64,000 bases of DNA from an uncultured Rikenella sp. (GTDB lineage Bacteria > Bacteroidota > Bacteroidia > Bacteroidales > VadinHA17). Shown here one piece after another: positions 10,286 to 35,659 of the stretch. Made by a program: the position numbers and the translations under genes. Every line of letters starts with the position of its first letter. Within the stretch, counting starts at the first letter, position 1. The stretch covers positions 67,312 through 131,311 of the forward strand of contig CAYPKP010000002.1 in the NCBI GenBank assembly GCA_964411345.1, read 5' to 3'. The notes below the pieces were generated by a model. That model was not told the origin of the DNA and ran no database searches. It saw only the letters and a list, made by a program, of their open reading frames with translations.

Positions 10286-11701
10286 CTACCAAATATAGGT
10301 TCCGACGGCACCGCCGTCAAGGGTAAGAGGAACGGAGAAGCCCCTGTACCTTACATTGAAATTTCTTTTTGAAGGAGTGGTGTTGAGCACTATCAGCACC
10401 TTCCTGCCGTCCGCAGTCATGAATCCCACATTTGGCAGCCCCCCGGGCATGTTGGTGGATACCCGCACTGAACCAGGTCTGACATGCCTGGCGGCATGGG
10501 CGAGGATGTAATATGCCGGGTTTCTCTTTACGCTGTTGCCGTCCAGGGTCACGGTACCGAGACACCTGTCGCACCCTCCCTCTGTATGAGGGTCATATGA
10601 CGGGTCGGAGGCCAGGTTCCATTCAAGGACGTTCCTGCACCAGTTGCGCGTTGCGCCTATGATCAGGTTTTCGACATGCCATTTGATATCCTCGGCCATG
10701 TTCCCGGGTCCTCCAACCCACTGCTCGGTGAAGTAGAGGTTCTTTGAAGGCCAGGCCTCATGCACGGCAGTGAGATCGTCAATGGAGCCGCCATAGAGGT
10801 GGAAGGCAGAGCCGTCAATATACTGTCTGGCCCCCGCGTCGTTGAGTACGGCAAGCGGGTAGTCGGTCCTGTCGGCATTGTGATCATAGATGATGATCTT
10901 CGTAGTGATGCCGGCAGCCGCAAATGCAGGCCCGAGATTTTCCCTGATAAAAAGAGCCTGGTCCTCAGCCGTCATCACCATGCTCGGGTTGTTGCCGCCG
11001 TGCAGGGGCTCATTCTGGACGGTGATGGCATCTATGTCTATACCCTCGGCCTTCATGGCCTGGATATATTTTACAAAATAGGTGGCATAGGCATCAAACC
11101 ACTCACGCTTCAGGCTCCCTCCCACAGAGGCGTTGTTGCTCTTCATCCACAGCGGAGCTGACCATGGTGAGCCCATGATCTTAATTGAAGGATTTATGGC
11201 CAGTATCTCTTTAAGGACAGGTATCAGGTCCTCCCTCTCAGGATCGATGCTGAACCTCTCCATCAGCGGGTCGGTCTCTCCCGCAGGCAGGTCATTATAG
11301 GAGAAGACCCTGTCGCTCAGGTCAGAGGCACCGATGCTTATCCTGAGGTAGCTGATCCCGATACCGTTGTCCTCAGTGGAGAAGAGCTCCCCAAGCAGCT
11401 CTCCGCGGGCCTCCGGCGTCATCTGGTTAAGCAGGATGGCACTGCCGCCTGTAAGGCAGTTGCCAAATCCGTCGATCTCCTGGTATGTTTCCGCAGTGTC
11501 AACGACAATAGCCGGGTCATTGTTGGAAGCCGTGAGAAACTCCAGCTTGCCGTCATGCTTCTCAAAGAGAACATCCTTCTGGGGAGAGGTGATCCACGCT
11601 TCCACAGTTATTCCGGTACCCTCCCCGGTGTCCGGACCGTTTTCCGGAGACCTGTTGCAACTGATGATGAGAAGGGCAAAAATGAATGGCAATATCTTCA
11701 T
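10286..11701 (-). CDS. glycoside hydrolase family 30 lipoprotein (likely beta-1,6-glucanase/debranching)
   Basis: Lipoprotein signal MKILPFIFALLIISCN. GH30 signatures GSPWSAPLWMK, ITVQNEP and YFTEQW. It sits within the beta-glucan locus. Confidence 0.8.
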   Translation of the reverse strand: MKILPFIFALLIISCNRSPENGPDTGEGTGITVEAWITSPQKDVLFEKHDGKLEFLTASNNDPAIVVDTAETYQEIDGFGNCLTGGSAILLNQMTPEARGELLGELFSTEDNGIGISYLRISIGASDLSDRVFSYNDLPAGETDPLMERFSIDPEREDLIPVLKEILAINPSIKIMGSPWSAPLWMKSNNASVGGSLKREWFDAYATYFVKYIQAMKAEGIDIDAITVQNEPLHGGNNPSMVMTAEDQALFIRENLGPAFAAAGITTKIIIYDHNADRTDYPLAVLNDAGARQYIDGSAFHLYGGSIDDLTAVHEAWPSKNLYFTEQWVGGPGNMAEDIKWHVENLIIGATRNWCRNVLEWNLASDPSYDPHTEGGCDRCLGTVTLDGNSVKRNPAYYILAHAARHVRPGSVRVSTNMPGGLPNVGFMTADGRKVLIVLNTTPSKRNFNVRYRGFSVPLTLDGGAVGTYIW

Positions 11702-11709
11702 CGGTGAAA

Positions 11710-12549
11710 TTATTTGACCTGGTAAACCCTGACGTAATCAACTACCATTGACCGCGGGAAGATGGAGTCGTCAACACCCTGCACTCCTCCCCAGTTTCCT
11801 CCGACAGCCACGTTGAGCAGCAGGTGAAACCGTTTGTTGAAAGGCCACACCTTATATCCGGTTCCCTCGTTCTGAAATGTAAAGTAGTGCTTGTCATCAA
11901 CATATCCCCTGATCTCCTTCAGGTCCCACTCAATGGCATAAACATGGAAATCGGTATAGCACGTTGAAACAGTAGTCTTTGATGATTTCTGTGTCCCGAT
12001 GGTATGATTGTAAGATTCCGTGTGCACTGATGCGTGGATTACATAGGGTTCATAGCCCACGTTTTCCATTATGTCTATCTCACCGCTGGCAGGCCATCCG
12101 CCGTACTCCCAGTCGGTGGGCAGCATCCATATTGCCGGCCACATTCCCCTGCCGTCGGGAATTTTTGCCTTCACCTCCACCCTGCCGTACAGCCAGTCGC
12201 CCTTGCCTTTCGTCCGCAGCCTCGCAGATGTATAGTCAAAGCCCTCATAATCCTCCCTGTGGGCGGTGATGTAAAGAAAGCCGTCCCTGACCTCGGCATT
12301 CGCCAGCCTGCCGGCAGTATAATACTGCAATTCATTATTGCCCCATCCGGAGGCATTGCCGTCAACGTCATAGCCCCACTTGTTCGCATCAGGCAGGCCT
12401 GTGTTACTGAACTCATCGCTCCACACCAGCACAAGTTGACCGGTGTTTGGGTTATCCGGATATTCTTCAGGGTCGTTTTCACCGCTGCACCCTGTCATCA
12501 GAAGGAAAACCGGCAAGAAGACCGATACTATTATTGGCATAAGTTTCAT
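11710..12549 (-). CDS. glycoside hydrolase family 16 lipoprotein (laminarinase-type endo-beta-1,3-glucanase)
   Basis: Lipobox LLMTGCSG followed by an acidic stretch (ENDPEE). GH16 catalytic motif SGEIDIMEN (ExDxxE) and WPAIWMLP. Confidence 0.9.
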   Translation of the reverse strand: MKLMPIIVSVFLPVFLLMTGCSGENDPEEYPDNPNTGQLVLVWSDEFSNTGLPDANKWGYDVDGNASGWGNNELQYYTAGRLANAEVRDGFLYITAHREDYEGFDYTSARLRTKGKGDWLYGRVEVKAKIPDGRGMWPAIWMLPTDWEYGGWPASGEIDIMENVGYEPYVIHASVHTESYNHTIGTQKSSKTTVSTCYTDFHVYAIEWDLKEIRGYVDDKHYFTFQNEGTGYKVWPFNKRFHLLLNVAVGGNWGGVQGVDDSIFPRSMVVDYVRVYQVK

Positions 12550-12658
12550 CTGTGTATAATTTGATATCTGGAGGTCATATGCACCCCCCTTGTTTGCCGG
12601 GCATTTTCATTACTGCCTGTGTTTTTCAGAACCGGAGGATTCATCTCTTCAGATTATG

Positions 12659-14917
12659 CTACCTGATGATAAAATCAGCATGGAGCCCCTCGTCTGAATT
12701 CGGTCCTACCCATACATCAAACTCACCAGGCTCAGTGACAGTCTCTTTGCCATTGAAGAAGGCCAGGTCAGCAGCTGTGAGGGTAAACTCCACCTCCGCC
12801 GTCTCCCCTTTGGGTATGGTAATTCTCCTGTACCCCTTCAGCTCCCTGATCGGGCGGGTTATGCTGCCCACCCTGTCACGGATATAGAGCTGGACTATCT
12901 CAGCGGCATCCCGCTCACCGCTGTTGTTCACCTTTGCCTTTACTGTTATTGAACCTGCTGTGCTCATCTCATCATCAGACAGTTCAAGATCACTGTAGGT
13001 GAAGGTTGTATAGCTGAGTCCGTACCCGAAAGGCAACAGCGGTGTATAGCCGTAATCGAGATGGAAAGACTCGTATCCGAGTGAGCTCTGCGGATTCTCA
13101 ACAGGGATCTCGTCTATGGGTGTCCATGTCTCGTCCGAGGCAGGCCTGCCGGTGTTTTTCCGGTAATAGTAGAACGGAATCTGACCCTCACCCTTGACGA
13201 AGGTCACCGGAAGCTTGCCCGAGGGGGATTCCTTTCCGAAAATAAGGTCGGCAAGTGCCGGGCCTGCCATCGTCCCTCCGTGCCAGGCGTAGAGAAGGGC
13301 ATCAGACTCCTTCAGCTCATCACCTATTGCCAGTGGCCTGCCGGCCATCACAATGACGACCAGTGGCTTGCCCGTTGCGGCCAGGGCCGTAAGCAGCTCG
13401 CTCTGAGCGCCCGGCAGATCTATGTTGCCCCGGGACTGCCCCTCTCCTGACAGTATCCACTCCTCACCGATGAACAGGAGGATGGCGTCGGATCTTTCGG
13501 CCGCAGCAACGGCGGCACCGAACTGATCTCTCTTCCTGTCGCGGCTGTATTTCAATCCCTGGACATAACTGACCCTTTTTTCGCCAATCAGATCCCTGAT
13601 GGCCTCCAGGGGAGTGACCGAGTTCTCCGGCCGGCCGTCGAAGCTCCAGGTGCCCATCTGGTCACGCGGGGCATCGGCAAGCGGGCCTATTACGGCCAGT
13701 GATCTGATCTCTGCCTCTGAAAGAGGAAGCGTGCCGTTATCGTTCTTCAGCATCACCGTGCTCTCTCTTGCTACCTTGCGGGCATGCTCAAGGAAGGAAG
13801 GATCGAGGATCCTCTTCTCTGCCTCCGGATCAACATAGGGATTCTCAAATAATCCAAGCTTGTATTTCACCCTCAGTATGTTTTTCACAGCACCGTCAAT
13901 CTGCTGCATGGTGATCTTCTTCTCCTCCAGCAATGCCTTGATGTTGTCAAAATATGTGGTGGTAGCCATCTCCATATCCAGGCCGGCAACAATGGCTTTA
14001 GCGGCAGCATCCTTCTCGTCAACGGCATATCCCTGATCAACAATCTGCGGGACCGATGCCCAGTCGCTGATGACAAGTCCGTCGAATCCCCACTCATCAC
14101 GCAGTATCTGTTTCAGGATAAACTCATTTGCCGAAACAGGAACACCGTTCAGTTCGTTGAACCCGGACATGAATGTCAGGGCACCTGCATCCTTTGCGGC
14201 CCTGAACGGTTTCAGAACCACATTGCGCAGCACCGGCTCCGAAATATAGGTGGTATTGTAATCACGTCCTGCCTCCGCGAAACCGTAACCCGCATAGTGC
14301 TTGGCACATGCCGCCACGGAGGCGGGGTCAGTGAGACTGTCACCCTGCAGGCCCTGAACCATTGCATATGCCAGTGTGGAAGCCAGATAGGGATCCTCAC
14401 CGAGCCCTTCAGCTACCCTGCCCCACCTGGGATCCCACGTAATGTCAATCATGGGCGCAAACGCCCAGTTGATTCCCTGTGTCGAGGCCTCGGACGCTGC
14501 AATACGATAAGCCTCCTTCACTGACTCAGGATTCCAGGATGCGGCCATCCCAAGAGGGATAGGGAAGATGGTGCGATAGCCGTGGATGACATCCCGGCCA
14601 ATCAGAAGTGGTATCCCAAGCCTGCTCTCTTCAACGGCAATGCGCTGGGCCTCATTGACCTTGTCGGGTCCGAGGTAGTTGAGCAGCGAACCGAACCTGC
14701 CGTCGCGGATAGCTTGCTTAAATTTCTCATTATCACTGAAATATCCATCGAACAGCTGTGACATCTGGCCTATCTTCTCATCAAGTGTCATACGGGCAAC
14801 CATCTTTTCAGCCCTGGCATCAGCGTCGTCCTTTACAGGGGCTCCTCTCTTGCATGAAAAGGTCAGGCAGGCGGTAAGCAGGAACAGCAGTACAAGTGAA
14901 GGTTTAAAGTTATTCAT
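12659..14917 (-). CDS. glycoside hydrolase family 3 beta-glucosidase
   Basis: 752 aa with a signal peptide. GH3 nucleophile region GLVISDW, plus KHYAGYG and the overall BglX-like two-domain + FnIII-like length. Confidence 0.9.
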   Translation of the reverse strand: MNNFKPSLVLLFLLTACLTFSCKRGAPVKDDADARAEKMVARMTLDEKIGQMSQLFDGYFSDNEKFKQAIRDGRFGSLLNYLGPDKVNEAQRIAVEESRLGIPLLIGRDVIHGYRTIFPIPLGMAASWNPESVKEAYRIAASEASTQGINWAFAPMIDITWDPRWGRVAEGLGEDPYLASTLAYAMVQGLQGDSLTDPASVAACAKHYAGYGFAEAGRDYNTTYISEPVLRNVVLKPFRAAKDAGALTFMSGFNELNGVPVSANEFILKQILRDEWGFDGLVISDWASVPQIVDQGYAVDEKDAAAKAIVAGLDMEMATTTYFDNIKALLEEKKITMQQIDGAVKNILRVKYKLGLFENPYVDPEAEKRILDPSFLEHARKVARESTVMLKNDNGTLPLSEAEIRSLAVIGPLADAPRDQMGTWSFDGRPENSVTPLEAIRDLIGEKRVSYVQGLKYSRDRKRDQFGAAVAAAERSDAILLFIGEEWILSGEGQSRGNIDLPGAQSELLTALAATGKPLVVIVMAGRPLAIGDELKESDALLYAWHGGTMAGPALADLIFGKESPSGKLPVTFVKGEGQIPFYYYRKNTGRPASDETWTPIDEIPVENPQSSLGYESFHLDYGYTPLLPFGYGLSYTTFTYSDLELSDDEMSTAGSITVKAKVNNSGERDAAEIVQLYIRDRVGSITRPIRELKGYRRITIPKGETAEVEFTLTAADLAFFNGKETVTEPGEFDVWVGPNSDEGLHADFIIR

Positions 14918-15179: not shown

Positions 15180-18100
15180 TCAGGAATGAGGCTTTACCGT
15201 TACAATGACATGTTTTATCTCCCCGGTTCTGTTGAAGATCATATTGCTGCACTGGTGATCGAGTGCAGCACCCTCCGCTCTCACAACCCTGCCATCATAA
15301 AATACCACCTCTGTTTCGTTGCGTTCACCGGGGGTATAGACTACCGGCACCTGGCAGAAAGTAAAGGCAATCTGGCTGGCCGTCAGACCAAGATTCTCAC
15401 TCCTGCCACTGACAGATGTATATGTGAACTGTCCGTCACAATCGTGAAGTTCATCATAATTCAGCAGTGAGGTGTCGAACCTGACCCTGCCTGTCTCCAC
15501 AACAACTCCAAGCTCCCTCATCCTGGATATGAAGTCTTCCTTAACCTGTCCGGTCATTCCTGGCTGTCTGGCACCGGAATTACCCGGGGTATGAGAATAG
15601 GCATCGGTGGGAAATGCTCCGTATTTTTCAGGCGGTTTATGTACCCCGATGCCTGCCTTTATATCATAATAGTGATCTCTCAGCCCGGCAGATATCTCGC
15701 TGCCGGCACCCTCGTCGATTGATCTGAAGAAACACTCCTGGGCTGCGAGCAGCAGCTTGGATACCATGTGCCAGTAGATACTTCCCAGGCCTTCATAGGC
15801 ATAAAAGGTGCCCGATCTTCCGGTGAATGACTGATGGTCGAACACCTCCTCATAAATCTTAAGAACCAGCGACTTTTCCTTCTGGACCAGCTTACCGTAG
15901 GAGCGGGCGTCAAGTGAACCGAGTGCCGACTCCAGTAGTCCGGCGTTGCGGAAACTGCGGTGGAAATGGACTGTTCCGGCCTTGTCGCGCACGACAACGG
16001 AGGTCTCACCGTCAGCCACCAACCTGGACAGCAGCTCTGACTCCTCAACCCTGGCTGCCGGGATATTGTTCTTCTCCGTAAACCTTGTCAGCTGCCTGTC
16101 GGGATAGAGCAGATAACTGTACTGGTCACTCCTGAACAGGTCAGACTGCCTTAGTGCGTCAAGCACCTCCAGGGCCTCGGCAGATGTCAGATAACCTGCG
16201 CTGAGCACTGCCACCTGTCCTTCCAGCATCTTGTACAGGTGACGGACGGTTACAGTGTCACCACTGTCAAATGAGACCAGGTTATAGGAGTGATACAAAC
16301 CGTCATCGCGTCTGTTCCTTCGTATTGATTCATCGGCATATTCAAGTGTCAGGCCGAGGAACCGTGAGAGCTGCTTCATGTTTACCGGAGCTTTCCTTCC
16401 GGAGAAGGCATGTCCGTAGACCGTCCGGCGGTATCTTGTACCCGCCTCACCCATGGCATCGGCAAATCTGCGGCGCTCCCGGTCGGAAAATCCCTCTTTC
16501 AGAAGAGATACTCTCTCCTCAAGTATCCCCAGCACACTGTCGAACAGTCCTTTAACCTCTTCGGAGACTTCCACGGATGAGAGATCAGAACGGTTGATGA
16601 TATTCTGCCAGAAATGCAAAAACCTCCTCAGGTAGCAAAGGGTCACCATTGATGCACCGTTACCTACCAGTGCATTGTTGGCATCATTCCACTCCGGCCG
16701 CTGAGTGTTAAGCCAGATCCCGGCCTCAGGTATGAAATTCACCAGCTTGGCCAGCAGCAGCACCAGTATCTTCTCTGCAAGATTCACGTGATAAACTGTC
16801 TTGCCGTCAATACTCAACAGGCGGCCGTCAGACCCTATATCCTCAACGCGGGCGCTGATTCCGGCATTCAGCTCCTTGTCGAAGTCGATGGTATTCTTCG
16901 GATCACGGACAATATCCGCATAGGGCTTTATGCGATATGGCACATTTGCATAGGCAAAATGCTCATTTGCCAGCATCCGGCCAATTTTGCCGGGGTGGTA
17001 CATGTCAGACAGTTCGGCAAGCTTCTGCAGGTAAATTATCTGGTGATCGCCCCAATAGCCTATATAAGCCCACGGATCATCAGGATCGGGGGCCTCCCAG
17101 TCGATTCCGTTGCGCGTGATGCGATAGGGATTATAGCCATCGGGTGTGGTGGCGTTCAGGAATTTGCTGATGATGCTTTCAATGAATTCCGGGAATGAAA
17201 TGGAGAGGGCCTCCCAGTTCTGAAAGATATCCCTCCAGTTTCCCTGGAAATCAAATTTCGGAGTGCCATCTTCATTTCTGCTGTCAATTGAGAACTGATT
17301 CCAGGGACGGCTGGGATCACCGTGCCGGCGGCTGAAAGTCAGGGGCAGGTATTCGCTGAAAATTCTGATTAAGCCGGGATTTCCGCTCTGCCGTGCGCGG
17401 TGGTTCATCTCCTGCAGGGTGATCTCCGCCCCTTTTGCCGGCAGGAGGGATTCTGCCTCAGCCATTATCCGTTTGTCACTCTTGCCGATAAAATTCAGCA
17501 GGTCCTCCACGTTAACGGAGTAGTTGTTGAGGTAGATGCCTCCGCGCATGATATTGAAGAGTGTATTGGAGAAATGGCGTGCCGTACAGAGATCATCACT
17601 GCTCTTCTGCATTCCGTCAGCCGATGCAACGAATGAGACCAGCCTGTCTGTGCCTTTGCTGATGTCTGCTTCAACCAGCTCAACAATGTGTTTCTCATCC
17701 CTGAGGAACCGATCAAGGTTTGCCACATCGGCACTGCCCTGGTCAACCTCACAGACCATTATCCACTCCTCCGGGTGGTGACCCTCCATCAAAATGTCTG
17801 TATGGAGGAGATATGCACCCCTTGTTGCCCTGATGTCAGTTTCGGTCTGAACGGGATTGCCCTTCTTAAATCTGTCAACCTGCCTGTCGGAAAGGAGCAC
17901 TTTGTTCTCTTTCAAACCGCATGACCATACCGTTGTGGCTATCAGGGATTCGCTCGGCTCCGCCTTGTCAACAGGTATGGAGCTGAGCATGAACAACCCA
18001 AGCTTCGTATCTTCGATAAGCTCGCTCTTCTTGTAGCCGTCAAGCAGGTTGCTGTATTCATTCTGAAAATTATAGTCAGCCCCGGCCGGCAGGATATTGA

Positions 18101-18644
18101 GTATGCCATCCAGGAGACGTACCCTGACCGGCTCCCCGGTAATGTTTACAAGCCTTGATTTGCGGACGAATCCGTATTTGTCACTCGTATACCACCCGTA
18201 TTGAAATTCCAGTCCCAGATCCAGGTTTCTCTCCAGAAAGACGATCTTGTTGCCGTGGGTACTTTTTAGCAGGCTCCGCTCTCTGCGGTACATGTTCCCC
18301 AGCTCTTTGGAGAACGGCTGCCAGAGGAAGGTGTCTGCACCTCTCTGGGCCAGGATAACGGTTTTGCTTCCCGTCAGGCCGCAGTAGTCATGAATTTTAT
18401 CATCAGTGTAGTACGGGAAGAGAGCATGATCACGGTCTTTTCTTCCCGCTGTCAGTGATCCGTTACTCGAAATAAACAACCAGTGATCGGAGTCACTGAC
18501 CACCGTCATGAAGAAATCCGGCATCTGGTCATAGCCGGCTATACGGTAAAACTCTTCGCCTTCAATATCTGTGAAGCTGCCCCGGACTATTTCATCCGGA
18601 TCAATCAGGACACTCTGGCCCAGCTGTATCTTCTCTCTTTCCAT
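15180..18644 (-). CDS. large cytoplasmic GH94-clan glycan phosphorylase-like protein (candidate beta-1,3-glucan phosphorylase, GH149/GH161-like)
   Basis: 1154 aa with no signal peptide. GNWRDIFQNWEAL and RPEWNDANNAL resemble, from memory, the RDxxQD and DWND catalytic-region motifs of GH94-type (alpha/alpha)6 phosphorylases. Size and context (MFS, GH17, GH16, GH30, GH3) fit what is described for GH149. The CDS is secure; the product assignment is inference. Confidence 0.5.
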   Translation of the reverse strand: MEREKIQLGQSVLIDPDEIVRGSFTDIEGEEFYRIAGYDQMPDFFMTVVSDSDHWLFISSNGSLTAGRKDRDHALFPYYTDDKIHDYCGLTGSKTVILAQRGADTFLWQPFSKELGNMYRRERSLLKSTHGNKIVFLERNLDLGLEFQYGWYTSDKYGFVRKSRLVNITGEPVRVRLLDGILNILPAGADYNFQNEYSNLLDGYKKSELIEDTKLGLFMLSSIPVDKAEPSESLIATTVWSCGLKENKVLLSDRQVDRFKKGNPVQTETDIRATRGAYLLHTDILMEGHHPEEWIMVCEVDQGSADVANLDRFLRDEKHIVELVEADISKGTDRLVSFVASADGMQKSSDDLCTARHFSNTLFNIMRGGIYLNNYSVNVEDLLNFIGKSDKRIMAEAESLLPAKGAEITLQEMNHRARQSGNPGLIRIFSEYLPLTFSRRHGDPSRPWNQFSIDSRNEDGTPKFDFQGNWRDIFQNWEALSISFPEFIESIISKFLNATTPDGYNPYRITRNGIDWEAPDPDDPWAYIGYWGDHQIIYLQKLAELSDMYHPGKIGRMLANEHFAYANVPYRIKPYADIVRDPKNTIDFDKELNAGISARVEDIGSDGRLLSIDGKTVYHVNLAEKILVLLLAKLVNFIPEAGIWLNTQRPEWNDANNALVGNGASMVTLCYLRRFLHFWQNIINRSDLSSVEVSEEVKGLFDSVLGILEERVSLLKEGFSDRERRRFADAMGEAGTRYRRTVYGHAFSGRKAPVNMKQLSRFLGLTLEYADESIRRNRRDDGLYHSYNLVSFDSGDTVTVRHLYKMLEGQVAVLSAGYLTSAEALEVLDALRQSDLFRSDQYSYLLYPDRQLTRFTEKNNIPAARVEESELLSRLVADGETSVVVRDKAGTVHFHRSFRNAGLLESALGSLDARSYGKLVQKEKSLVLKIYEEVFDHQSFTGRSGTFYAYEGLGSIYWHMVSKLLLAAQECFFRSIDEGAGSEISAGLRDHYYDIKAGIGVHKPPEKYGAFPTDAYSHTPGNSGARQPGMTGQVKEDFISRMRELGVVVETGRVRFDTSLLNYDELHDCDGQFTYTSVSGRSENLGLTASQIAFTFCQVPVVYTPGERNETEVVFYDGRVVRAEGAALDHQCSNMIFNRTGEIKHVIVTVKPHS

Positions 18645-19638
18645 AATGATTCAGATAATTGCTGAATGATGGTTTTGGCCGGCGGTTTTCGTAATAGACA
18701 CCCCAGTGTTTTTCCACTTCATCCGGTTCTGAACTGTCTCCTCCTCCCTTCCACGGTTCATCAAACGCCTCAAAGAGGAAGGTGGTTACCCGGTGTTTTA
18801 CTATCCAGTCGTGCAGTTGGATCAGATACTGTTCCTGGGCATCCAGGCCTACTGCACCCCTGATTAGGGAAGCCTGCTCTCCGGGCCCGGTCTTGCTGGC
18901 ATTGTAGCTCGTTGCCCAGCCCGCCTCTCCGATTATATTTACCTTGCCGGGATGCATCGCCAGAACCTCCCTGAAATATACCCTGTCCATCCATTCAATG
19001 GCAGTATCCAGTTCAATGCCGTTCCACATGGCATACATATGTGTGACAATAAAGTCTATCTCATCAGCCACCTTCTTACTGTCAAATGTAATCCAAAAAC
19101 TGTAATCATCGGCTGTGGCTACCGGTACCGTGGTACTATTTCTGACAAGCCTGATATACCGGATTAAATCCTGCTGGTCCATTCTGTGGGCTGACCAGGT
19201 TACCTGCGTCTCATTTCCCACGCTCACGGCAGTGACAATGTCAGGATATTCATTTGCCAGTTCGATCCCCTTCATGGCCTGTGCGATGTTTTCCTCTCTC
19301 CGCCCGGGCAGCCCGGTTTCATTCTCCAGCCAGACACCCAGCATCACCTTTATGGGAAGATGCTTCCTCCTGATAACCTTCAGTATTCTGGCAGAGTCAT
19401 CATCAGAGCCGTAAAGCCTGATCAGGTTCCAGTGATTCTGAATTATCAGCAGGTCCTCCTCTATCTCAGTGGCCGAGGGGCCTTTTACGCCGGGCGCCTG
19501 ACCTCTGCGGTAACAGCCGTAGGAGACCGCTTCTCCTACCCATCTGCCTTTCAGACAGGGCTCGAATCTGCGAACTGCAAAGGGATCCTGCCTTGCAAAG
19601 GAGGATCCCGAATTACGAACCGGAGAGTTCTTGTTCAT
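18601..19638 (-). CDS. glycoside hydrolase family 17 (beta-1,3-glucanase/transglycosylase), no signal peptide
   Basis: GH17 motifs VSVGNETQV (acid/base Glu) and IGEAGWATS (nucleophile Glu). The N terminus MNKNSPVRNSGSSFARQDPFAVRR has no hydrophobic segment. Its 3' end overlaps the next gene's start by 44 nt. Confidence 0.8.
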   Translation of the reverse strand: MNKNSPVRNSGSSFARQDPFAVRRFEPCLKGRWVGEAVSYGCYRRGQAPGVKGPSATEIEEDLLIIQNHWNLIRLYGSDDDSARILKVIRRKHLPIKVMLGVWLENETGLPGRREENIAQAMKGIELANEYPDIVTAVSVGNETQVTWSAHRMDQQDLIRYIRLVRNSTTVPVATADDYSFWITFDSKKVADEIDFIVTHMYAMWNGIELDTAIEWMDRVYFREVLAMHPGKVNIIGEAGWATSYNASKTGPGEQASLIRGAVGLDAQEQYLIQLHDWIVKHRVTTFLFEAFDEPWKGGGDSSEPDEVEKHWGVYYENRRPKPSFSNYLNHYGKREDTAGPECPD

Positions 19639-19664
19639 GAAAAAAGGATCTTATGAAAGGAAAA

Positions 19665-21329
19665 CTAAAGCTGCACCCGCACCGTCTGGACAGAATTTGC
19701 AACAATGGTTATGTCAGCATACTGATCCTCTATCTGAAGCTTGTACGAAATATCTCTCTTCGTCGTATTCAACAGCTGCACACTCAGAACATTGTCAGCA
19801 TTAAGGGTGGCACATGCATGCAGGTCGTCTTCGCCCAGTCCTGCACCGTTATTGTATGTCTGCACTGCCCTGTCTCCCGGCCTGATCGTTTTGCTGAACT
19901 GGGCCAGCACGTAATATACGGGTGTATAGTAAATATGGCCTGTATCAGTGTTTATCATTATCGGGGCACCGCAGAAGTTGCCCACGTGATTCGGTCCGCC
20001 TGCATGGTCAAGCACAACGTTCCAGTCGATCCAGCCAGCCAGCCAGTGATCAATACTGACAATTATGTTCCTTGCATAACGGTGTACCGGAGTATATGCC
20101 GGATGGTCTTCGGCCGTGACTCCCGCCCAGGTTGCTGAATAAGCCCAGTCCGTGGCATTGTCGTTCCACCAGAACAAATCATTGTCAAACCAATCCTTCT
20201 CCATGAAACGGTCCGGATCGGTAATGCCCTGGGGAGCCGGTTTGCCCAGGTCATCGATACAGCCTTCAGTATGTATGATCTTCTTATCCGGGAACTTTGC
20301 ATTGACGGTTTCAAAGACATCTTCATAAACCCGGAATGTACTCTCGTACCAGTGAACCGCTGTGCCGTATACATATTCAGATGTCTCGCCATCGGCCAGT
20401 ATCACATCTGTCCAGTCCTCAATACCGTCCCTGTTCTGGTCGTAGATGAGCAACCTCACCTCAGCATTGTCTCCTGATTTCAGTTTCGGCCCCAGGTAGT
20501 TCCTGACAAACGCATTCTGGGTCTCAGGCGTGAAATGCATGCTCTCCCACTGACCGTTGTTGCCGTGCGGTTCATTGACGGGTGTAATGCCCCAGATATC
20601 CACTCCCTCGGATCTGTATTCGTCAAGGTATCTTACAAGATAGTCGGCATAGGCCTCCTCGTACTCTTTCCTGAGACTGCCACCGGTTCCCTGGTAGTTG
20701 TTTTCCGGGGAGCCCTTTATATACCAGTCATCAATATCCTTCATCCAGGGCGGGGCAGTCCATGCAGATGCCACTATCCTCAACTCCTTGTCATCCTGCT
20801 GTTTCTTGATATCCATGGCCTCCCTGATCATGGGCAGCAGATCATAGTCTTCATCCTTTATCCCGGGAAATTCATCCTTGCCGAATCCCTCTTTGTCAGG
20901 TGCGATGCTGAACGACTCCAGCCTGACATCTCCCTCCCTGTCGAGGTATGAATATTTCCCCTTGACAGAAAAGTCACATGCCCCTATATGAGTTCTTGTC
21001 AGTGAAAAGTTTGCTCCCTCCTCACCGAATATCCTTCTCATGACCTCCAGGCGTTCAGCCGGGTCGAGATGTGCAAGTACAAAGGCCGAGGACTCAGTAA
21101 AGGACGAACCGATCCCGTCCATTGTCTGTTTAAGGACATCAGGTTCTATCCGGATAACGGTGCCCGTGGGTTCTCCCCTGACAAAGTTCACATTATCCTT
21201 AACAGCTATTTTGTCACCGCTCTCCGAGGTGACGTAAATCTCTTTCGTCTTCAACAGACCGGGGTCACATGATTGCATAACGGCTGCTAAGATAAACAGT
21301 AGTGAAAAAAAGTAAATTTTGTGTTTCAT
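19665..21329 (-). CDS. glycoside hydrolase family 30 lipoprotein
   Basis: Trimmed to ATG 21329 (cat 21327-21329), giving MKHKIYFFSLLFILAAVMQSCD (lipobox). GH30 signatures SAWTAPPWMK, ITPVNEP and IIHTEGC. Confidence 0.8.
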   Translation of the reverse strand: MKHKIYFFSLLFILAAVMQSCDPGLLKTKEIYVTSESGDKIAVKDNVNFVRGEPTGTVIRIEPDVLKQTMDGIGSSFTESSAFVLAHLDPAERLEVMRRIFGEEGANFSLTRTHIGACDFSVKGKYSYLDREGDVRLESFSIAPDKEGFGKDEFPGIKDEDYDLLPMIREAMDIKKQQDDKELRIVASAWTAPPWMKDIDDWYIKGSPENNYQGTGGSLRKEYEEAYADYLVRYLDEYRSEGVDIWGITPVNEPHGNNGQWESMHFTPETQNAFVRNYLGPKLKSGDNAEVRLLIYDQNRDGIEDWTDVILADGETSEYVYGTAVHWYESTFRVYEDVFETVNAKFPDKKIIHTEGCIDDLGKPAPQGITDPDRFMEKDWFDNDLFWWNDNATDWAYSATWAGVTAEDHPAYTPVHRYARNIIVSIDHWLAGWIDWNVVLDHAGGPNHVGNFCGAPIMINTDTGHIYYTPVYYVLAQFSKTIRPGDRAVQTYNNGAGLGEDDLHACATLNADNVLSVQLLNTTKRDISYKLQIEDQYADITIVANSVQTVRVQL

Positions 21330-21376
21330 GACAGATGAATTCAAAATGCCGGCAATAGCTCCGGACGTTTCAGTGA

Positions 21377-22264
21377 TCATACATATTTCAGGTTCCCGTC
21401 CTTGTCCCAGATACCCCAGAAGGCTCCCACATCTCCTTCCTTTTCAATCTTCCAGGCTTCGTCAAAGCTGGAGAAATACATAATCTCGATTTTCTCCTGC
21501 AGGCTCCACTTCTGTGTGTTGATGAAATACCGGAGGGCATTGTCCGTGGAAGGCTCAGATGCCCTGAAGGCCTTTCCCTTATCCGGCCATCCCGTCTCAC
21601 TGATAACCACCCTCTTTCCCCTGGCAGCCTGGATCACGCTGAAGTACATGTTTTTCATGTAGACCAGTGAATAGTCAATATGGCAGCCTTCCCAGAAGGG
21701 ATAGCAGTTGATGAACAGCACATCGCACGCTTCAGTGATTGCCGGCCTGTTGACAAATTCGTAATAGGCATCAACGTAACCCACACTGGCCTGCGGCACC
21801 TGCTGCTTAACCCTGTGAATATAGTCGAGCAATTCCTGCTCCGTCAGTTCACCGCGGTACAGGACTTCGTTTCCTACAGCCACGAGGTCCGCATCTCCTT
21901 GCCTTACGACCCTGATCAGGTTCTCTATCTCCTCTTCGTTATGTTCCCTGTCATCACCAAGCCATGCTCCAGCCATTACCTTAAGGCCATACTCCCTCGC
22001 AATCCGCGGAATATTTTCATGACCGTCGGTGCAGGAAAATGTCCTGATCCAGGAGGTATACGGTTTAATGATTTCCATCCTCTTCCGGATCTGTTCCTCA
22101 CTGACGATGCTGCCTGGTGCCTGACCCTCAACATAGGAGCTGAAACAGAGACCGTGAATCCCATTCTCAAGGAAATCCCTGAACAGCTTCTTCAGGTCGG
22201 CAGTTGATTTGTTGCTGAAGTCCTCTCCCGTGAGAGAGAGGTATTTGTCGCTTCTGTATGACAT
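21377..22264 (-). CDS. glycoside hydrolase family 17, no signal peptide
   Basis: VAVGNEVLY and VVISETGWPDKG are the GH17 acid/base and nucleophile motifs. The N terminus MSYRSDKYLSLTGEDFSNK has no signal peptide. Confidence 0.85.
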   Translation of the reverse strand: MSYRSDKYLSLTGEDFSNKSTADLKKLFRDFLENGIHGLCFSSYVEGQAPGSIVSEEQIRKRMEIIKPYTSWIRTFSCTDGHENIPRIAREYGLKVMAGAWLGDDREHNEEEIENLIRVVRQGDADLVAVGNEVLYRGELTEQELLDYIHRVKQQVPQASVGYVDAYYEFVNRPAITEACDVLFINCYPFWEGCHIDYSLVYMKNMYFSVIQAARGKRVVISETGWPDKGKAFRASEPSTDNALRYFINTQKWSLQEKIEIMYFSSFDEAWKIEKEGDVGAFWGIWDKDGNLKYV

Positions 22265-22457: not shown

Positions 22458-23888
22458 CTAGAGCTCTCCCCTCCTGGCTACCAGCTCTGCCTTAATCTCC
22501 CTGGCCTTCTCTTCCGTGAGGTCATACTTCCACATCACCAGGATGGCCAGAAAGGCAGTGATTGCCGGAATCGCAATATCAGCAATCCTCAGTTTGGTCA
22601 GCGTCTCTGCAGCCTGAACGGCAGCATTCTGGTCAAATCCGACCAGTTTCAGCACGAGACCTCCCAGAACGAGGGCCAGTGCCTGTCCCAGCTTCACCAT
22701 CCACCAGTATATGGCGCCAAATGTTCCCTCCTTGCGGGGCATTCCGTTATTCAGTTCGTCAAGGTCGCACACGTCTGCCGTCATGCTCATCATCAGCGTA
22801 AACAAGCCTCCGATTCCGAATACCATAAGGGGAAGCGGCATGAATATCAGCCAGGGATTTACCGGGTTGAATCCCCACCATTTCAGAGAATAACCTATAA
22901 TTGAAATAAAGGTGGAGATAATAAATGCGTTTCGTTTACCCACCCTGTTGGAAATGGCGGAAATAACAGGAATCACGAGGAATGCGGTTATTATTGCCGA
23001 TACGGTGGAGAACCATGCCGGCCAGTTTCCTGCCAGACCATAGTCGCCCTTGAACATGTAAAATACAATGATGAAATAGCTGAACGACGCCACCAGCTGA
23101 AACCCGTTGAATACAAGAAAGGTTGCCGCACATAGCCTCATAAAAGGGATATTCTTTGATACCTGGGCGATCCCCTTGAAGAGACTCATGAGGTTGGAAA
23201 ACAGGGTTTTATAAGTAATCTTGACTCTGCCTTCCATTTTAGAGGCATCTATTCCCTTACAGAAAATCGCAGGCAGTATGCCAAGGACGACACAGACCCC
23301 TCCCACAATCATTGAGAGTTTATTGACTCCGATGGCCTGATTTTCAAACAGGTTTGGGTTTGCAATCAGCACCCAGAACCAGGGCACGATCATCCATGCC
23401 ACCTGGCCCAGAGTCTGGGAGAATGCCATCAGTCGTGTACGTTCATTGTAGTCTGACGTCATTTCGTAACCCAGTCCGATCAGGGGAGTGGAAAAGATGG
23501 TATTTCCTGTCAGGTAAATGAGTGAGAAAATCAGGAAATACCAGAAGTTGTACGTCTGGGAATTATCGGGAGAGAGCTGCCAAAGGACTGCGAACAGCAC
23601 CCCGCTCAGGATGGCTCCGGCAAAAATGTAGGGTCTTCTGCGGCCAAATTTCGACCTTGTGTTGTCGGAGATAAAACCCATAATAGGGTCTGTAATCGCA
23701 TCATAAAAACGTGGAAGTCCGCCAAGCAAGCCCGCCAGGAAGGGATCCATCCCGAAGGCAGTAAGTAAAAAGAACATAAAGACTCCAAGTGCTCCAGGCA
23801 GCAGGTTGTTAACCAGATGGCCGGCACCAAAAGCGGCTTTCTGAACAATGGGTACTTTGTCCTTAGCAGCTGTTACATAATGACTCAT
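22458..23888 (-). CDS. MFS-type glycoside-pentoside-hexuronide (GPH) family sugar:cation symporter
   Basis: About 12 predicted TM segments and the GPH hallmark DAITDPIMGFISDNTRSKFGRRRPYI after TM2. Confidence 0.85.
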   Translation of the reverse strand: MSHYVTAAKDKVPIVQKAAFGAGHLVNNLLPGALGVFMFFLLTAFGMDPFLAGLLGGLPRFYDAITDPIMGFISDNTRSKFGRRRPYIFAGAILSGVLFAVLWQLSPDNSQTYNFWYFLIFSLIYLTGNTIFSTPLIGLGYEMTSDYNERTRLMAFSQTLGQVAWMIVPWFWVLIANPNLFENQAIGVNKLSMIVGGVCVVLGILPAIFCKGIDASKMEGRVKITYKTLFSNLMSLFKGIAQVSKNIPFMRLCAATFLVFNGFQLVASFSYFIIVFYMFKGDYGLAGNWPAWFSTVSAIITAFLVIPVISAISNRVGKRNAFIISTFISIIGYSLKWWGFNPVNPWLIFMPLPLMVFGIGGLFTLMMSMTADVCDLDELNNGMPRKEGTFGAIYWWMVKLGQALALVLGGLVLKLVGFDQNAAVQAAETLTKLRIADIAIPAITAFLAILVMWKYDLTEEKAREIKAELVARRGEL

Positions 23889-24000: not shown

Positions 24001-24813
24001 CTATTTATCGTTCACTTCGGTATATACCCTGACGTAATCAACATACATCGTCTGGGGAAACGGTGTATCGGAGGTCGGAAACCCAACATAATCACCGCCG
24101 ACAGCCACATTAAGAATTATGAAGAAAGGGTTATCGAAGACCCACTCACCTGTCAGATCACCGGGTTCAATAGCCTGATAAAGCACATCATCAACAAAAT
24201 AGTGTATGAAATTCTCGCCCCATTCTACTGCAAAAAGATGATAATCAACATCAAACCTGTTGTTTGCATACCCGTAGCTCTTTGTTATTGCGGCACCTCC
24301 CGAATAGCCGGGTCCGTGAACGCTGCCATGTATCAGGTTGGGTTGCTGACCGCGGTATTCCATGATATCAATCTCACCGCACTGTGGCCACGGATTGGTT
24401 TCGATGTCAGCACCCAGCATCCAGAAAGCCGGCCATATGCCAGGGCCCCACGGCAGTTTTATCCGGGCTTCAAAGCGACCGTAGGCCTGTTCAAATTTCC
24501 CCTGCGTCTTGATCCTTGCCGAGGTGAAGGTACCGCCGTTGTTGATTGCGGTAATTTTCAGCGATCCGTCAGCGACCACCACGTTCTGCGCATCGTTGGT
24601 GTAGGCTTGCAGTTCATTGTTGCCCCAGCCGCCTCCTCCGAGGTCAAATGCCCATTTTGATCCGTCAGGAGCTCCGTCGGTATCAAACTCATCCTGCCAG
24701 ACCAGCTGATATGTGCGATCCTCCAGTCCTGAGTTGTTCTCACAAGCTCCCAGCATGAAAAGAGCTGCCAGGAAGAGGATTCCCCTGATAATTAATAGAT
24801 TATTTGATTTCAT
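24001..24813 (-). CDS. glycoside hydrolase family 16 lipoprotein (laminarinase-type)
   Basis: Lipobox FMLGACENN. GH16 catalytic motif CGEIDIMEY, plus WPAFWMLG. Confidence 0.9.
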   Translation of the reverse strand: MKSNNLLIIRGILFLAALFMLGACENNSGLEDRTYQLVWQDEFDTDGAPDGSKWAFDLGGGGWGNNELQAYTNDAQNVVVADGSLKITAINNGGTFTSARIKTQGKFEQAYGRFEARIKLPWGPGIWPAFWMLGADIETNPWPQCGEIDIMEYRGQQPNLIHGSVHGPGYSGGAAITKSYGYANNRFDVDYHLFAVEWGENFIHYFVDDVLYQAIEPGDLTGEWVFDNPFFIILNVAVGGDYVGFPTSDTPFPQTMYVDYVRVYTEVNDK

Positions 24814-24908
24814 TCTTAATGGTTTTACCTGTTTGTGAATCTTGTTTCTCAGATAAGCTGAGGCCTCAGTGTTCAGGATGTTGATGCTGAAGCCTCAGCC
24901 AATCAGGG

Positions 24909-27900
24909 TTATTTCCAGAGATAGATGTTATCATACCATACATTGGTCAGGTTGGCGGTAGTAATCCCGATCTGGGCTACGTTGCTTCTTGTAAGGTTAC
25001 CTGCGACAACCCCTCCAAGGGCGGTGATATCAACATCCACGGAGACCCAGGTACCCGCAACTATGGCAGGTGTTGTTCCCGTGTTGATGTTGACTTCCAG
25101 GGCAGAAGCCTCCCCTGTGCCACCTGCAAAATCAACCAGTTTTACATTGAAGACATCACCGGTAAGGTTGGTATCATCCGTATAGAAATCGAAATGGATA
25201 TGTGTGAAGGAGGAGAGGTCCTGCCTGTTGGCAGAAAAATCAATTCCGTGACAGTCTACTCCGGCATTCTTCTTCAGGGTATTGTTACCGTCGATTGACA
25301 CCTGGGTGACAGCTGAGCCTCCGCACCATCCGGCATCAAAGTTTCCAATGGTGATGTTGGTATAGGCATCACTGTAGATGGATACCACATTGGCGGCGCT
25401 GCGTGCAGGCGGCGTAGGAGCTGCAGCAGTCGGTCCCGTGGCCGTGCTGCCGCCGTCATTGTAGAAATAGAAATTGTCTATCCAGACGGTGGTGGCGCCG
25501 GAAGGCTGTCCCACAAAGATATACTGTGCCAGGTGAGCCCTCGTCGTCAGGCCGGCGAAATCACTCAGCGGTATGTCATAGCTGACCCACACACCCGTTG
25601 CAGGTGAGGCATAGTCCTTCTGGTGTTCCACATCATCACCGCCCCCGAATGCCCCGTCGGCACCAAAGTCAACAAGCTTGACACTGAAGCTGGTGTAGTC
25701 GGCAGACCATACATCAAGGTGCACGTGGGTCATCGACGTAGCGTCAATGGTCGATGAGGTGGTCTCCACACCGACAAAATTGAGCGCAGAATATTTCTTC
25801 GTCGGATTACCGGCTACAGACACCTCCTCATAGGTCGCAGCAGACCAGTCGGTTCTCCAGGTGTCCACCGTAACGTTGGCGTAGGCACCGCTGAACAGGG
25901 AGATTACATCATCAGTATTCCTTGCAGGAGGCGTCGGCGCCGCAGCTGCCGGCTCTGTTGCCGTGCTGCCGCCCTCATTGTAGAAGTAGATATTGTCTAT
26001 CCAGACGGTGGTGGCGCCGGAAGGCTGTCCCACAAAAATATACTGTGCCAGGTGAGCCCTCGTCGTCAGGCCGGCGAAATCACTCAGCGGTATGTCATAG
26101 CTGACCCACACACCCGTTGCAGGTGAGGCATAGTCCTTCTGGTGTTCCACATCATCACCGCCCCCGAATGCCCCGTCGGCACCAAAGTCAACAAGCTTGA
26201 CACTGAAGCTGGTGTAGTCGGCAGACCATACATCAAGGTGCACGTGGGTCATCGACGTAGCGTCAATGGTCGATGAGGTGGTCTCCACACCGACAAAATT
26301 GAGCGCAGAATATTTCTTCGTCGGATTACCGGCTACAGACACCTCCTCATAGGTCGCAGCAGACCAGTCGGTTCTCCAGGTGTCCACCGTAACGTTGGCG
26401 TAGGCACCGCTGAACAGGGAGATTACATCATCAGTATTCCTTGCAGGAGGCGTCGGCGCCGCAGCTGCCGGCTCTGTGCCCGTGCCGCCACCCGATTTGT
26501 AGAAGTAGATGTTGTCCACATAGACAGTGCTCAGATTGCTTGAAAGCACCATCTGGGCAAGATCCGATCTTGTCTGGTCTCCGGCAAAGGCCGTTATCGG
26601 GACATCCACCGAAACCCATGAACCTTTTGCCAGTGCCGGAACATCTCCGCTGGCAGTATGGACAATGGTGAGTATATGGCTTGAAGCCTCTGCGGCACCG
26701 CCACCGAAATCAACATTCTTTATTGAAAGTGACTTCGAGACAACCTCATCGGGAGTCCAGATATCAATATGGAAATGAGTCATTCCCGAGGCATCAAACT
26801 TGTTGCTGCTGAAGTCAATACCTGCGAAATTGGTGAATGAATACTTCTTCACATCATCACCTGCAACCTGCACATCTGCAACATCCGAATCATCCCATTC
26901 TGCTGACCATGTTGAGACAGTTCTGTTTGTATATGCGTTGCTGAAAAGAGATATTACATCAGCAGCATCCCTTGCAGGCGGCACCGGGGCAGCCACGGCC
27001 GGCCCACCCGCTGTTCCTCCTCCGGAGGTGTAGAAGTATAAATTATCAAGATAAATATCACCGTTGCCGTCGAACTTCAGCTGAATAATATCGGCAAGAT
27101 CAACCGGAGAGAAGGCAGTCAGCGGAATATCAACACTTGTCCATCCTGTTGTTGGCACCGTGAGTGTATAGTCCTCTTCCACAGCTGGCGTTCCGGGACT
27201 TATCAGCCAGACTTTAAGTCCTGTTGAGTTTGCTGTCCAGAAGTCCAGGTGCAGATACTCCATACCTGTGACATTCTGACTGGCTGCCAGCTGTATGCCC
27301 TGGTAATTCAGTCCGGCAAACTTCAGTGTATTGTTACCAGCTACCTGAATTTCAGAGACCACAGTAACCTGGCCCCAGTCGGGGTAGTCGGTGCCTTCAA
27401 GATTGGTGTAGGCATCTCCGTAGATGGAGATCACATCAGCCGCATCCCTGGCCGGAGGCGCTGGTGCAGCCTCAGTGGGTACTGTAGGTGTACCTCCTCC
27501 GTTACCGTAGAGATAGACATTGTCAAGGTAGAAGCCCGACAGGGATGATCCCAGGCGTTCAAGAATTATCTGTGCCAGTTTGCTCCTGGAGGAGAGTCCG
27601 GCCAGAGGAATGTCAACACTGATCCAGCTTTGCGAAGCCAGCGGGCCGGCAATCTCATAAACAAGAGTTGGGTCATTGCCATCGAGGGCTCCGTCGGGAC
27701 CCATATCCACCAGCTTTATTGCAAGTTTGTCTGTAGCAGCCACCGCATTCGGAATCCAGATGTCCATATGCAGGTGTGTCATGGTGCTGGCATCTATTGT
27801 CGGCGATGTAAACTGAATTCCCACAAAATTGAAATTGGTATAGAAGAGCACATCATCATCACCTACCTTGAAATCTGCTGAAGTGGTAGTCTGGTAAGGC

Positions 27901-28901: not shown

Positions 28902-28907
28902 TTATGG

Positions 28908-31900: not shown

Positions 31901-32054
31901 TCATACCGTTGATCATAAAATCCTGGCCGTTGACTGCCAGCTTGATTTCGTCATCCTGCCTTACCACAGTAACCCTGTCAGCCTGCGCATTCATGGCTGA
32001 TGTTACTGTAAATAAAACAATTAGAAATCGCAGAAACAGGAGATTTTTTTTCAT
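28908..32054 (-). CDS. clan GH-A glycoside hydrolase domain fused to a ~600-aa C-terminal beta-barrel-like region
   Basis: SPI-type signal MKKNLLFLRFLIVLFTVTSAMNAQA with no lipobox. Residues ~30-420 carry LLGNENNYG (N171-E172) and IMFTEFGADAF (E273), the spacing and motifs of a clan GH-A TIM barrel, plus GFTFQFSDGWW as in GH2-type catalytic domains. Residues ~440-1048 are Gly/aromatic-rich amphipathic strands up to ...NEWEIRTYLHFNIGM. Confidence 0.6.
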   Translation of the reverse strand: MKKNLLFLRFLIVLFTVTSAMNAQADRVTVVRQDDEIKLAVNGQDFMINGMNWDYFPIGTTVTYSLWKQSDDVIKAALDAEMSLLRNMGVNAIRQYTGVPARWIEYIYRNYGIYTMLNHSFGRYGLTLSGQWVPNTEYSDPRVRELLLSEVKEMVNDYKDTPGLLMFLLGNENNYGLFWEGAETEDIPVEDRKSTTRARHMYKLFNEAVNVMADIDRTHPVAICNGDLLFLDIIAEECTDVEIFGVNMYRGASFGDAFQRVKDVLDIPIMFTEFGADAFNAVENDEDQQSQAYYMVENWKEIYANAAGLGKAGNCIGGFTFQFSDGWWKYGQTTDLDVHDNHASWANGGYLNDYVPGENNMNEEWFGICAKGPTNERGLYQLYPRAAYYALKEVHTVNPYDDGVTPESLDRHFSGIELSDAVLRARGDKATLVGEQVKKVRVSGLRAELSTFSTGGSRISTPVDPVPGALKYPDELGFDHMQSFYVDVEANPAPNLRGKVAINVLGNIAENPIDEIFYENRGRAREVNTDDGNLMLSALNRVKVYSAEFTWNAKMFDFTSFYRTGHYHWGYEGDFFGLYPEANYGPNMDIYNGEAPFGFEIDGKRALDGLKVAFGPELWWGANPAVLVKYSRTLAGFDLTGIYHEDLDEQAPAVSSFAIPSPPTRRTTLHIKRQMGPVGLELGGIWAGQPRVGETFQLVEGEPGNYTVYEDKINSNDTWGGKAKLTLSAGPVNWYAQGAAMGLVAGGGADYTKTFTGWRLKDSGSGNQFNFLTGLTVLVGDFQFAPNFLWQKPVIGPVPGDVPAPGRARNILDDPFAVRHNRETVAGEFLLTYDPTPATWMYEWDNDESEDAPFAISAGFVYRHHPTTQDAAIGILADGRATFAFDGAPPARDLWEAYSRIVSKPTPNLGLIANLFAGTAESNGSDERLIRRYGGDLRMIYKKAKLISMVKVNDWGPYDYHRDFNLTYPLQIKADLSTFVAKPKWVDLPQTRIGIRFNWRSLDQYSPRYCPTKNIDVNGDMICDPTVPGYPRGNEWEIRTYLHFNIGM

Positions 32055-32223
32055 ACTATTCAGGTTTGAGATTATCTGCTAACTTTTTTGTTTCTCATGA
32101 TGGCGGCCATTCATTCAACTGCCTCCTGCATCATGAGCTGAAACAGCGTTACAAGTAAGTTAAAAGTTGTTTCAAGTCCTGCTGTCTGATAGAAAGAAAA
32201 ATACATCATAAGCCGTCAAAATA

Positions 32224-32240
32224 TACATCAATACTACATC
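32224..32240 (-). promoter_or_regulatory. promoter-like element shared with the susC upstream region
   Basis: The minus strand reads GATGTAGTATTGATGTA. The susC upstream region has TGTAGTATTTTTGATGTA at 42241-42258. The embedded TAGTATTG is one mismatch from TAnnTTTG. It lies 170 nt upstream of the ATG at 32054, inside an AT-rich island. Confidence 0.4.
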
Positions 32241-32490
32241 ATATATTTATTATGTGTCTATTATACTATGCTTTATCAATTATTTTAAGCGTCACTGGCT
32301 CATCATACAGTAAAAACCTGTACATCAAAAGGAGAAAAGAAGAACGCGAAAGGAGGAGCAGGATAACTGGGCGGTGATGTATAAACGAAGAAGAGGAGGA
32401 GAGCAGATTTACATCAGATGATAGACCGGAGCAGCACGCCGGACTGGCCCTTGACATGCATCGGACAATCCCCGGAACCGTGCCCTGGAT

Positions 32491-32611
32491 CTGCAGAAGA
32501 TAATCCGACGTAATCCTGTGCCTCATATCCGCATAACATAATCCACGGGAATCCCGCCTCGGTTCTGCACAAGATAATCCGCCGTAATCCTGTGCCTCGG
32601 TTCTGCACAAG
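32491..32611. repeat. intergenic direct repeats (34-mers and 17-mers) rich in GGATTA units
   Basis: 32491-32524 ctgcagaagataatccgacgtaatcctgtgcctc and 32565-32598 ctgcacaagataatccgccgtaatcctgtgcctc differ at 2 positions. cctcggttctgcacaag occurs at both 32557-32573 and 32595-32611. Confidence 0.9.
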
Positions 32612-32633
32612 TCAAAATCCTCCGGGTCCTCCC

Positions 32634-35573: not shown

Positions 35574-35659
35574 TTATCGGGCGGATTCATCTCCGGGCAA
35601 TAAAATAAAAAGAGTCATTGCCTGCCCGCTCAAAGGCAGGCAATGACTTGCATAATCAA

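Follow-up and report, generated by a model that had tools for sequence, protein, structure and literature searches.

The 64,000-nucleotide stretch of contig CAYPKP010000002.1 analyzed here (the window) contains, on its minus strand at positions 15180..18644, an ATG-to-stop open reading frame (ORF) of 1154 codons plus stop, the product of which is very probably a cytoplasmic, inverting beta-1,3-glucan (laminaridextrin) phosphorylase (EC 2.4.1.97-type) of glycoside hydrolase family GH149, orthologous to the characterized enzymes Pro_7066 and EgP1. A sequence-only reading of the window had proposed a 1154-aa signal-less protein at exactly these coordinates and had named it a candidate beta-1,3-glucan phosphorylase of the GH94 clan, of GH149 or GH161 type; the ORF was recovered as described, and the family can be narrowed to GH149. 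The NCBIfam equivalog model NF058639 ‘GH149_beta_1_3’ (1,3-beta-D-glucan phosphorylase, GH149 family), the kind of family model suggested in that reading for comparison, matched the protein at 1619.8 bits over model positions 4-1134 of 1134, relative to a curated cut-off of 1150 bits, and a profile search of the whole genome gave the same result and a GH149 copy number of one.

In a sequence search of the PDB, the best match was 6HQ6/6HQ8 (Pro_7066, entered as ‘Bacterial beta-1,3-oligosaccharide phosphorylase’; E = 0, 1228.7 bits), with residues 19-1150 aligned to chain positions 38-1169 at ∼49% identity over 1132 residues, as counted from the printed alignment. The alignment to 6HQ6 is unbroken across all domains, including the inserts Dom 1 and Dom 2, and contains only three gaps of 1-2 residues each. 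This identity sits within the span of assayed activity, because Pro_7066 and EgP1 share only 45% identity and both are beta-1,3-glucan phosphorylases (PMC5827456). The next PDB matches were >1000 bits lower, namely the GH161 structure 9qqk (E 7e-15, 57 bits), which resembles the window protein in three short stretches rather than over its full length, and chain 9h8v, named ‘cellobiose phosphorylase’ (E 7e-14, 54 bits). An AlphaFold2 model, built on an alignment of 31 homologs, was compared with known structures by Foldseek; the top hit was again 6HQ6 (E 7.6e-81, template modeling score 0.55, 47% identity, 1140 columns), followed by GH161 structures (E 3.5e-23, 14% identity) and then by GH94 laminaribiose, cellodextrin, and cellobiose phosphorylases (E 1e-14 to 1e-7, ∼10% identity). 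For the modeled fold, this order of GH149, GH161, and GH94 is the one expected inside clan GH-Q.

These rankings bear directly on the possibility that the protein belongs instead to GH161, whose phosphorylases act at a degree of polymerization (DP) of three or more and are unable to cleave laminaribiose, or to GH94, whose laminaribiose and cellobiose phosphorylases act on disaccharides only. Both families share the clan and the catalytic motifs with GH149, weak matches to GH161 structures exist (9qqk), and some database homologs are named ‘cellobiose phosphorylase’; however, the bit scores and the Foldseek identities separate the families widely, the alignment runs without interruption through the GH149-specific inserts Dom 1 and Dom 2, and the Pfam GH94 model (PF17167) has no match to the window ORF. 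On the PDB bit scores, the Foldseek ranking, and the missing Pfam GH94 match, membership in GH161 or GH94 was rejected; with the NF058639 result added, that alternative is effectively refuted already, and its probability is close to nil. Judged by sequence, the window protein is a GH149 enzyme, neither GH161 nor GH94. The sole match to PF17167 in the genome lies in a separate gene on another contig (G000:C4:92033-93316), where Glyco_hydro_94 scores 542.7 bits within an 820-aa open frame, marking a genuine GH94 phosphorylase; the genome therefore carries two GH-Q clan phosphorylases.

The active site is conserved to the residue. Two segments that had been singled out as resembling motifs of GH94, GNWRDIFQNWEAL (residues 468-480, nt 17205-17243) and RPEWNDANNAL (residues 649-659, nt 16668-16700), are both present and correspond to the RD and WND motifs published for Pro_7066 (PMC6771811). 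The GH94 consensus fits them only approximately: where it has RDxxQD and (A/G)DWND, the protein has RDxxQN and PEWND. The stretches ‘gnwrdifqnweal’ around RD and ‘iwlntqrpewndannalvgng’ around WND are identical between the window protein and 6HQ6. Residues were transferred by alignment and verified by codon, with Pro_7066 numbered as in its structure paper (the PDB chain number is the paper number plus 19, checked residue by residue). Accordingly numbered, the RD motif for recognition of sugar 1-phosphate in the −1 subsite is R471/D472 (Pro_7066 R470/D471; 17229..17234, minus strand, as are all features of this gene), and the WND catalytic loop is W652/N653/D654 (Pro_7066 W651/N652/D653; 16683..16691), in which D654 is the equivalent of D653, the predicted catalytic Asp. 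E951 (15792..15794) is the counterpart of Pro_7066 E951, which contacts a bicine mimicking the hydroxyls of glucose 1-phosphate (Glc1P), and H959 (15768..15770) that of H959, the predicted phosphate-recognition His; the RD motif, E951, and H959 are listed among the conserved active-site features of Pro_7066 (PMC6771811). All seven residues (R471, D472, W652, N653, D654, E951, and H959) are invariant across the alignment of 31 homologs, which are 1145-1170 aa long and 57-85% identical to the query. The predicted protein thus retains all of the active-site residues published for Pro_7066.

The four-domain GH149 architecture could likewise be transferred from Pro_7066 (PMC6771811) through the HMMER alignment, with the secondary structure of the model in agreement. 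An N-terminal beta-sandwich domain (residues 1-304, 17733..18644; Pro_7066 1-303) is mostly beta in the model, a helical linker (residues 305-342, 17619..17732; Pro_7066 304-341) contains model helices at 304-316 and 320-340, the (alpha/alpha)6 domain with inserts Dom 1 and Dom 2 (15510..17618; Pro_7066 342-1045) is mostly helical, and the C-terminal jelly roll (15183..15509; Pro_7066 1046-1156) is beta-rich.

Several points weigh against this reading, or against its extension to the full behavior of Pro_7066. The AlphaFold2 model is of low quality, with a mean predicted local distance difference test (pLDDT) score of 65 and a predicted template modeling (pTM) score of 0.48, and because of this the fold assignment depends chiefly on homology with crystallized Pro_7066 at the sequence level; the model was not used for residue-level geometry. 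A Pfam scan of the protein gave no match at E ≤ 1, Glyco_hydro_94 and Glyco_transf_36 included, a result that says nothing against GH149 because Pfam has no GH149 model. The remote surface site at which Pro_7066 binds laminarihexaose in 6HQ8 is conserved only in part. Its two stacking tyrosines, Y842 and Y993, are retained (Y993 being <90% conserved among the homologs), and substitution is conservative in K831R, E990D, and E994D; at three of the eight site residues it is non-conservative (E838S, E982S, and R1062N). This surface oligosaccharide site is a feature of Pro_7066 rather than an established hallmark of GH149. With the site only partly kept, long-chain targeting may therefore differ from that of Pro_7066. 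Finally, the acceptor subsites of GH149 (+1 and beyond) have never been seen occupied, in Pro_7066 or elsewhere (PMC6771811), and the sequence therefore gives no guide to the chain lengths or branches tolerated. As a separate matter, the lowest AlphaFold2 confidence falls on residues 42-91, 431-476, 645-664, 936-959, and 998-1042, exactly the segments that are invariant and form the active site. The effect is probably artefactual, the alignment being shallow and its sequences too similar for these segments to show covariation, and it calls for caution in the residue-level use of AlphaFold2 models from such alignments.

The diverged surface site, the structurally uncharacterized acceptor subsites, and an identity of only ∼49% to a characterized enzyme would also suit a GH149-fold phosphorylase with another preferred substrate (beta-1,6-branched laminarin fragments, mixed-linkage beta-1,3/1,4-oligosaccharides, or another beta-glucoside) or one working mainly in the synthetic direction, and two leaderless GH17 enzymes encoded immediately upstream would share the cytoplasm, so that remodeled or branched substrates are conceivable. 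The −1 subsite and catalytic residues are identical to those of Pro_7066, however, the score far exceeds the equivalog-level cut-off, both characterized GH149 enzymes are beta-1,3-specific despite their low mutual identity, and the neighboring carbohydrate-active enzymes (CAZymes) of families GH16, GH17, GH30, and GH3 form the canonical laminarin set. Such a change of substrate or direction is accordingly considered quite unlikely, and a phosphorylase of beta-1,3-gluco-oligosaccharides is preferred.

A cytoplasmic location is indicated by the N-terminus (MEREKIQLGQSVLIDPDEIVRGSF...), in which a hydrophobic leader or signal peptide is absent. The start codon is reliable because the 31 homologs open with the same M-x-x-x-(K/N)-I-x-L-G. 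All exported neighbors (GH3, both GH16, both GH30, SusC, SusD, a PKD protein, and proteins of 1330 and 1048 aa) have a signal peptide or lipobox, and only the two GH17 enzymes and the GH149 enzyme lack leader peptides. The latter is the longest leaderless protein of the locus, in keeping with its earlier description as the largest soluble protein of the locus; a 1330-aa lipoprotein (24909-28901) is longer but exported. One strongly hydrophobic 19-residue stretch begins at residue 626 (Kyte-Doolittle 1.76) and was considered as a membrane anchor, an interpretation rejected on the grounds that the stretch aligns with equivalent residues of the soluble, crystallized homolog (6HQ6).

The GH149 gene lies within a Bacteroidota-type laminarin polysaccharide utilization locus (PUL), as recognized from Pfam matches and N-termini: the genes from 10286 to 45295 are all on the minus strand and include a SusC/SusD pair, GH16, GH17, GH30, and GH3 enzymes, and regulators. 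In the order of transcription, these encode a Y_Y_Y/LuxR regulator, SusC, SusD, a PKD protein, a second Y_Y_Y/LuxR regulator, and a 1048-aa clan GH-A protein, and then the 1330-aa lipoprotein, GH16, MFS_2, GH17, GH30, GH17, GH149, GH3, GH16, and GH30. The part upstream of MFS_2 spans 24001..45295, in which the 1048-aa protein is a candidate GH158-like enzyme. It is followed by an MFS_2 (GPH-type) sugar transporter of the major facilitator superfamily (MFS; 22458..23888; PF13347, E 3.6e-59), which is the probable inner-membrane importer of laminari-oligosaccharides supplying the phosphorylase, by the GH17, GH30, and GH17 genes (18601..22264) directly upstream of GH149, and, downstream of GH149, by the exported GH3, GH16, and GH30 genes (10286..14917). 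The four genes of the GH17-GH30-GH17-GH149 block are closely spaced (intergenic distances of −4, 26, and −44 nt) and are presumably co-transcribed. A simple consensus scan found no terminator or promoter in the 262-nt spacer after the GH149 gene, Bacteroidota promoter types lying outside that consensus.

Three further observations concern the locus and its border. The leaderless GH17 genes, at 18601-19638 and 21377-22264, flank the gene for an exported GH30 enzyme. Two paralogous Y_Y_Y/LuxR (GerE) regulators, at 32634-35573 and 42398-45295, occur within one laminarin PUL; their type resembles BguR, a membrane-spanning one-component regulator of Formosa agariphila laminarin PULs (bioRxiv 10.64898/2026.01.10.698779). 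At 7876-10284, on the plus strand and convergent with the end of the glucan locus, lies a gene for a protein with CotH kinase-like, lamin-tail, and type IX secretion system (T9SS) sorting domains, which occupies the same place in L007, a relative described below.

Together, these features are compatible with the following route for laminarin. Surface and periplasmic GH16, GH30, GH3, and 1048-aa candidate GH158-like enzymes would trim the polysaccharide, fragments would cross the outer membrane via SusC/SusD, and beta-1,3-gluco-oligosaccharides would enter the cytoplasm through the MFS_2 transporter. There, the GH149 enzyme and inorganic phosphate would release glucose units singly from the non-reducing end as alpha-D-glucose-1-phosphate, with D654 of the WND loop as the general acid, R471/D472 and E951 holding the −1 glucose, and H959 at the phosphate site helping to position the phosphate. 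Activity should extend down to laminaribiose (DP 2 or more), by analogy with Pro_7066. Characterized GH149 enzymes phosphorolyze beta-1,3-gluco-oligosaccharides of DP ≥2 to Glc1P and in reverse use glucose and longer chains as acceptors (PMC5827456). A phosphoglucomutase would convert Glc1P to glucose 6-phosphate for entry into glycolysis, and the genome encodes two genes of the phosphoglucomutase/phosphomannomutase (PGM/PMM) family. The ATP spent by hexokinase would thereby be spared for all glucoses but the last, a saving of one ATP per bond compared with hydrolysis plus kinase. Cytoplasmic phosphorolysis of imported laminari-oligosaccharides, the presumed physiological direction, fits both the gene context and the literature proposal for Bacteroidota GH149 enzymes (PMC5827456). 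Because the block is tightly packed and only the two GH17 enzymes and GH149 are without leader peptides, the arrangement further suggests that these three act together in the cytoplasm as a beta-1,3-glucan module supplied by the MFS importer. A more elaborate version, in which the leaderless GH17 enzymes remodel imports by transglycosylation or debranching and a GH149 enzyme with a diverged surface site is specialized for the branched or longer products, is speculative and improbable.

Homologs were sought by a word-based search that scored the 8000 candidates with the most shared words; all passed E 1e-10, giving at least 8000 matches. Among the matches listed, the best were proteins from metagenome-assembled genomes (MAGs) of uncultured Bacteroidales (79-86% identity), followed by those of Marinilabiliales-type Labilibaculum, Ancylomarina, Marinifilum, and Saccharicrinis (∼58-60%); because the nearest named homologs in this set are from ‘Bacteroidales bacterium’ MAGs, the host is regarded as a Bacteroidales-type lineage. 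One such MAG, L007, whose GH149 protein is 80% identical, matches the window exactly in gene order between the 1048-aa gene and the CotH gene that lies past the end of the locus. In a further relative, L006, an MFS gene lies directly upstream of the GH149 gene; the genes flanking GH149 in other relatives are either GH30 and GH17 or an MFS_2 gene.

Within the genus, nine of 25 genomes had a GH149 match, counting that of the window, as did 10 of 41 genomes overall. Stop codons break the copies in two congeners, G012 (C32:5196-8603, in many fragments) and G008 (C4:280330-283726). The sparse distribution and the two broken copies indicate that GH149 is an accessory gene undergoing loss in parts of the genus, and they lend themselves to the view that the window gene is itself an inactive or decaying copy that has kept its fold and lost its function. 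Opposed to this are an intact full-length frame with all catalytic residues, 31 homologs of the same length, and a locus fully syntenic with an intact relative, all of which make decay of this copy hardly credible and favor a functional GH149 phosphorylase.

The junction between the upstream GH17 gene and GH149 was compared with the corresponding region of L007 (9880-10085). In the window, the end of GH17 overlaps the start of GH149 by 44 nt (18601-18644). The GH17 of L007 ends ...NYLKHHEASLSARKRKQT*, followed by a 50-nt spacer and then the GH149 ATG, whereas the window has the conserved GH17 core (...SFSNYLNHY) abutting the GH149 ATG directly (AATCATTATGGAA), after which the GH17 frame runs on out of frame for ∼14 codons before reaching a TGA. 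The overlap looks like the result of a ∼70-nt deletion, and the N-terminus of the predicted GH149 protein is unaltered by it.

If the assignment holds, an uncultured Bacteroidales-type organism is equipped for laminarin, the main algal storage glucan, and would save energy by cleaving with phosphate instead of water, a saving that would weigh most for slow-growing or anaerobic sediment bacteria. The assignment is also of use for annotation: homologs among the matches listed were mostly unnamed or labeled ‘hypothetical protein’, with a few labeled ‘cellobiose phosphorylase’, and many public entries still carry these two names.

Compared with known systems, the protein is an ordinary GH149 member in a published context, the family, structure, mechanism, and presence in laminarin PULs having been known since 2018-2019. 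It is most like Pro_7066, a metagenomic Bacteroidota enzyme (6HQ6, 6HQ8; PMC5827456, PMC6771811), with which it shares its length (1154 vs. 1156 aa), end-to-end alignment, four-domain layout with Dom 1 and Dom 2, identical RD and WND motifs, E951, and H959, the lack of a targeting peptide, and a tie to beta-glucan CAZyme clusters of Bacteroidota; the two differ at about half of their residues, and the surface site has partly diverged. EgP1 of Euglena gracilis (PMC5827456) is of the same family and has the same catalytic motifs, but it is eukaryotic, has a predicted target peptide, prefers short acceptors, and probably mobilizes endogenous paramylon rather than imported laminarin. GH161 enzymes (PapP; 9qqk, 9gy9; PMC6484121) share the GH-Q clan, overall fold, reaction chemistry, and beta-1,3 specificity, but are distant in sequence, leave laminaribiose uncleaved, and occur mostly in Gram-positive bacteria and heterokonts, where they are usually paired with ABC transporters. 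The GH94 enzymes (laminaribiose phosphorylase PsLBP, 6GGY; cellobiose phosphorylase, CBP; cellodextrin phosphorylase, CDP) have in common the (alpha/alpha)6 domain, inverting phosphorolysis, the WND loop, the RD motif, and the phosphate-recognition His, yet are only remotely similar in sequence and are without Dom 1 and Dom 2.

At the level of the locus, Bacteroidetes GH149 genes were mapped by Kuhaudomlarp et al. (2018) to PULs with GH3/GH30 and GH16/GH17 enzymes, related clusters carrying a pfam13347 MFS transporter and a cytoplasmic GH17 (PMC5827456), and later literature counts GH149 as a standard component of laminarin PULs in Formosa agariphila, Polaribacter, Aurantivirga, Prosiliicoccus, and Muricauda. 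The window locus resembles the GH149 laminarin PULs of marine Bacteroidota (Formosa agariphila, Polaribacter, Aurantivirga, and Muricauda) in its SusC/SusD pair, LuxR-type regulator, GH16, GH17, GH30, GH3, MFS, and GH149 genes, and differs from them in its duplicated GH16, GH17, and GH30 genes, its two regulators, and its host, an uncultured lineage of Bacteroidales type.

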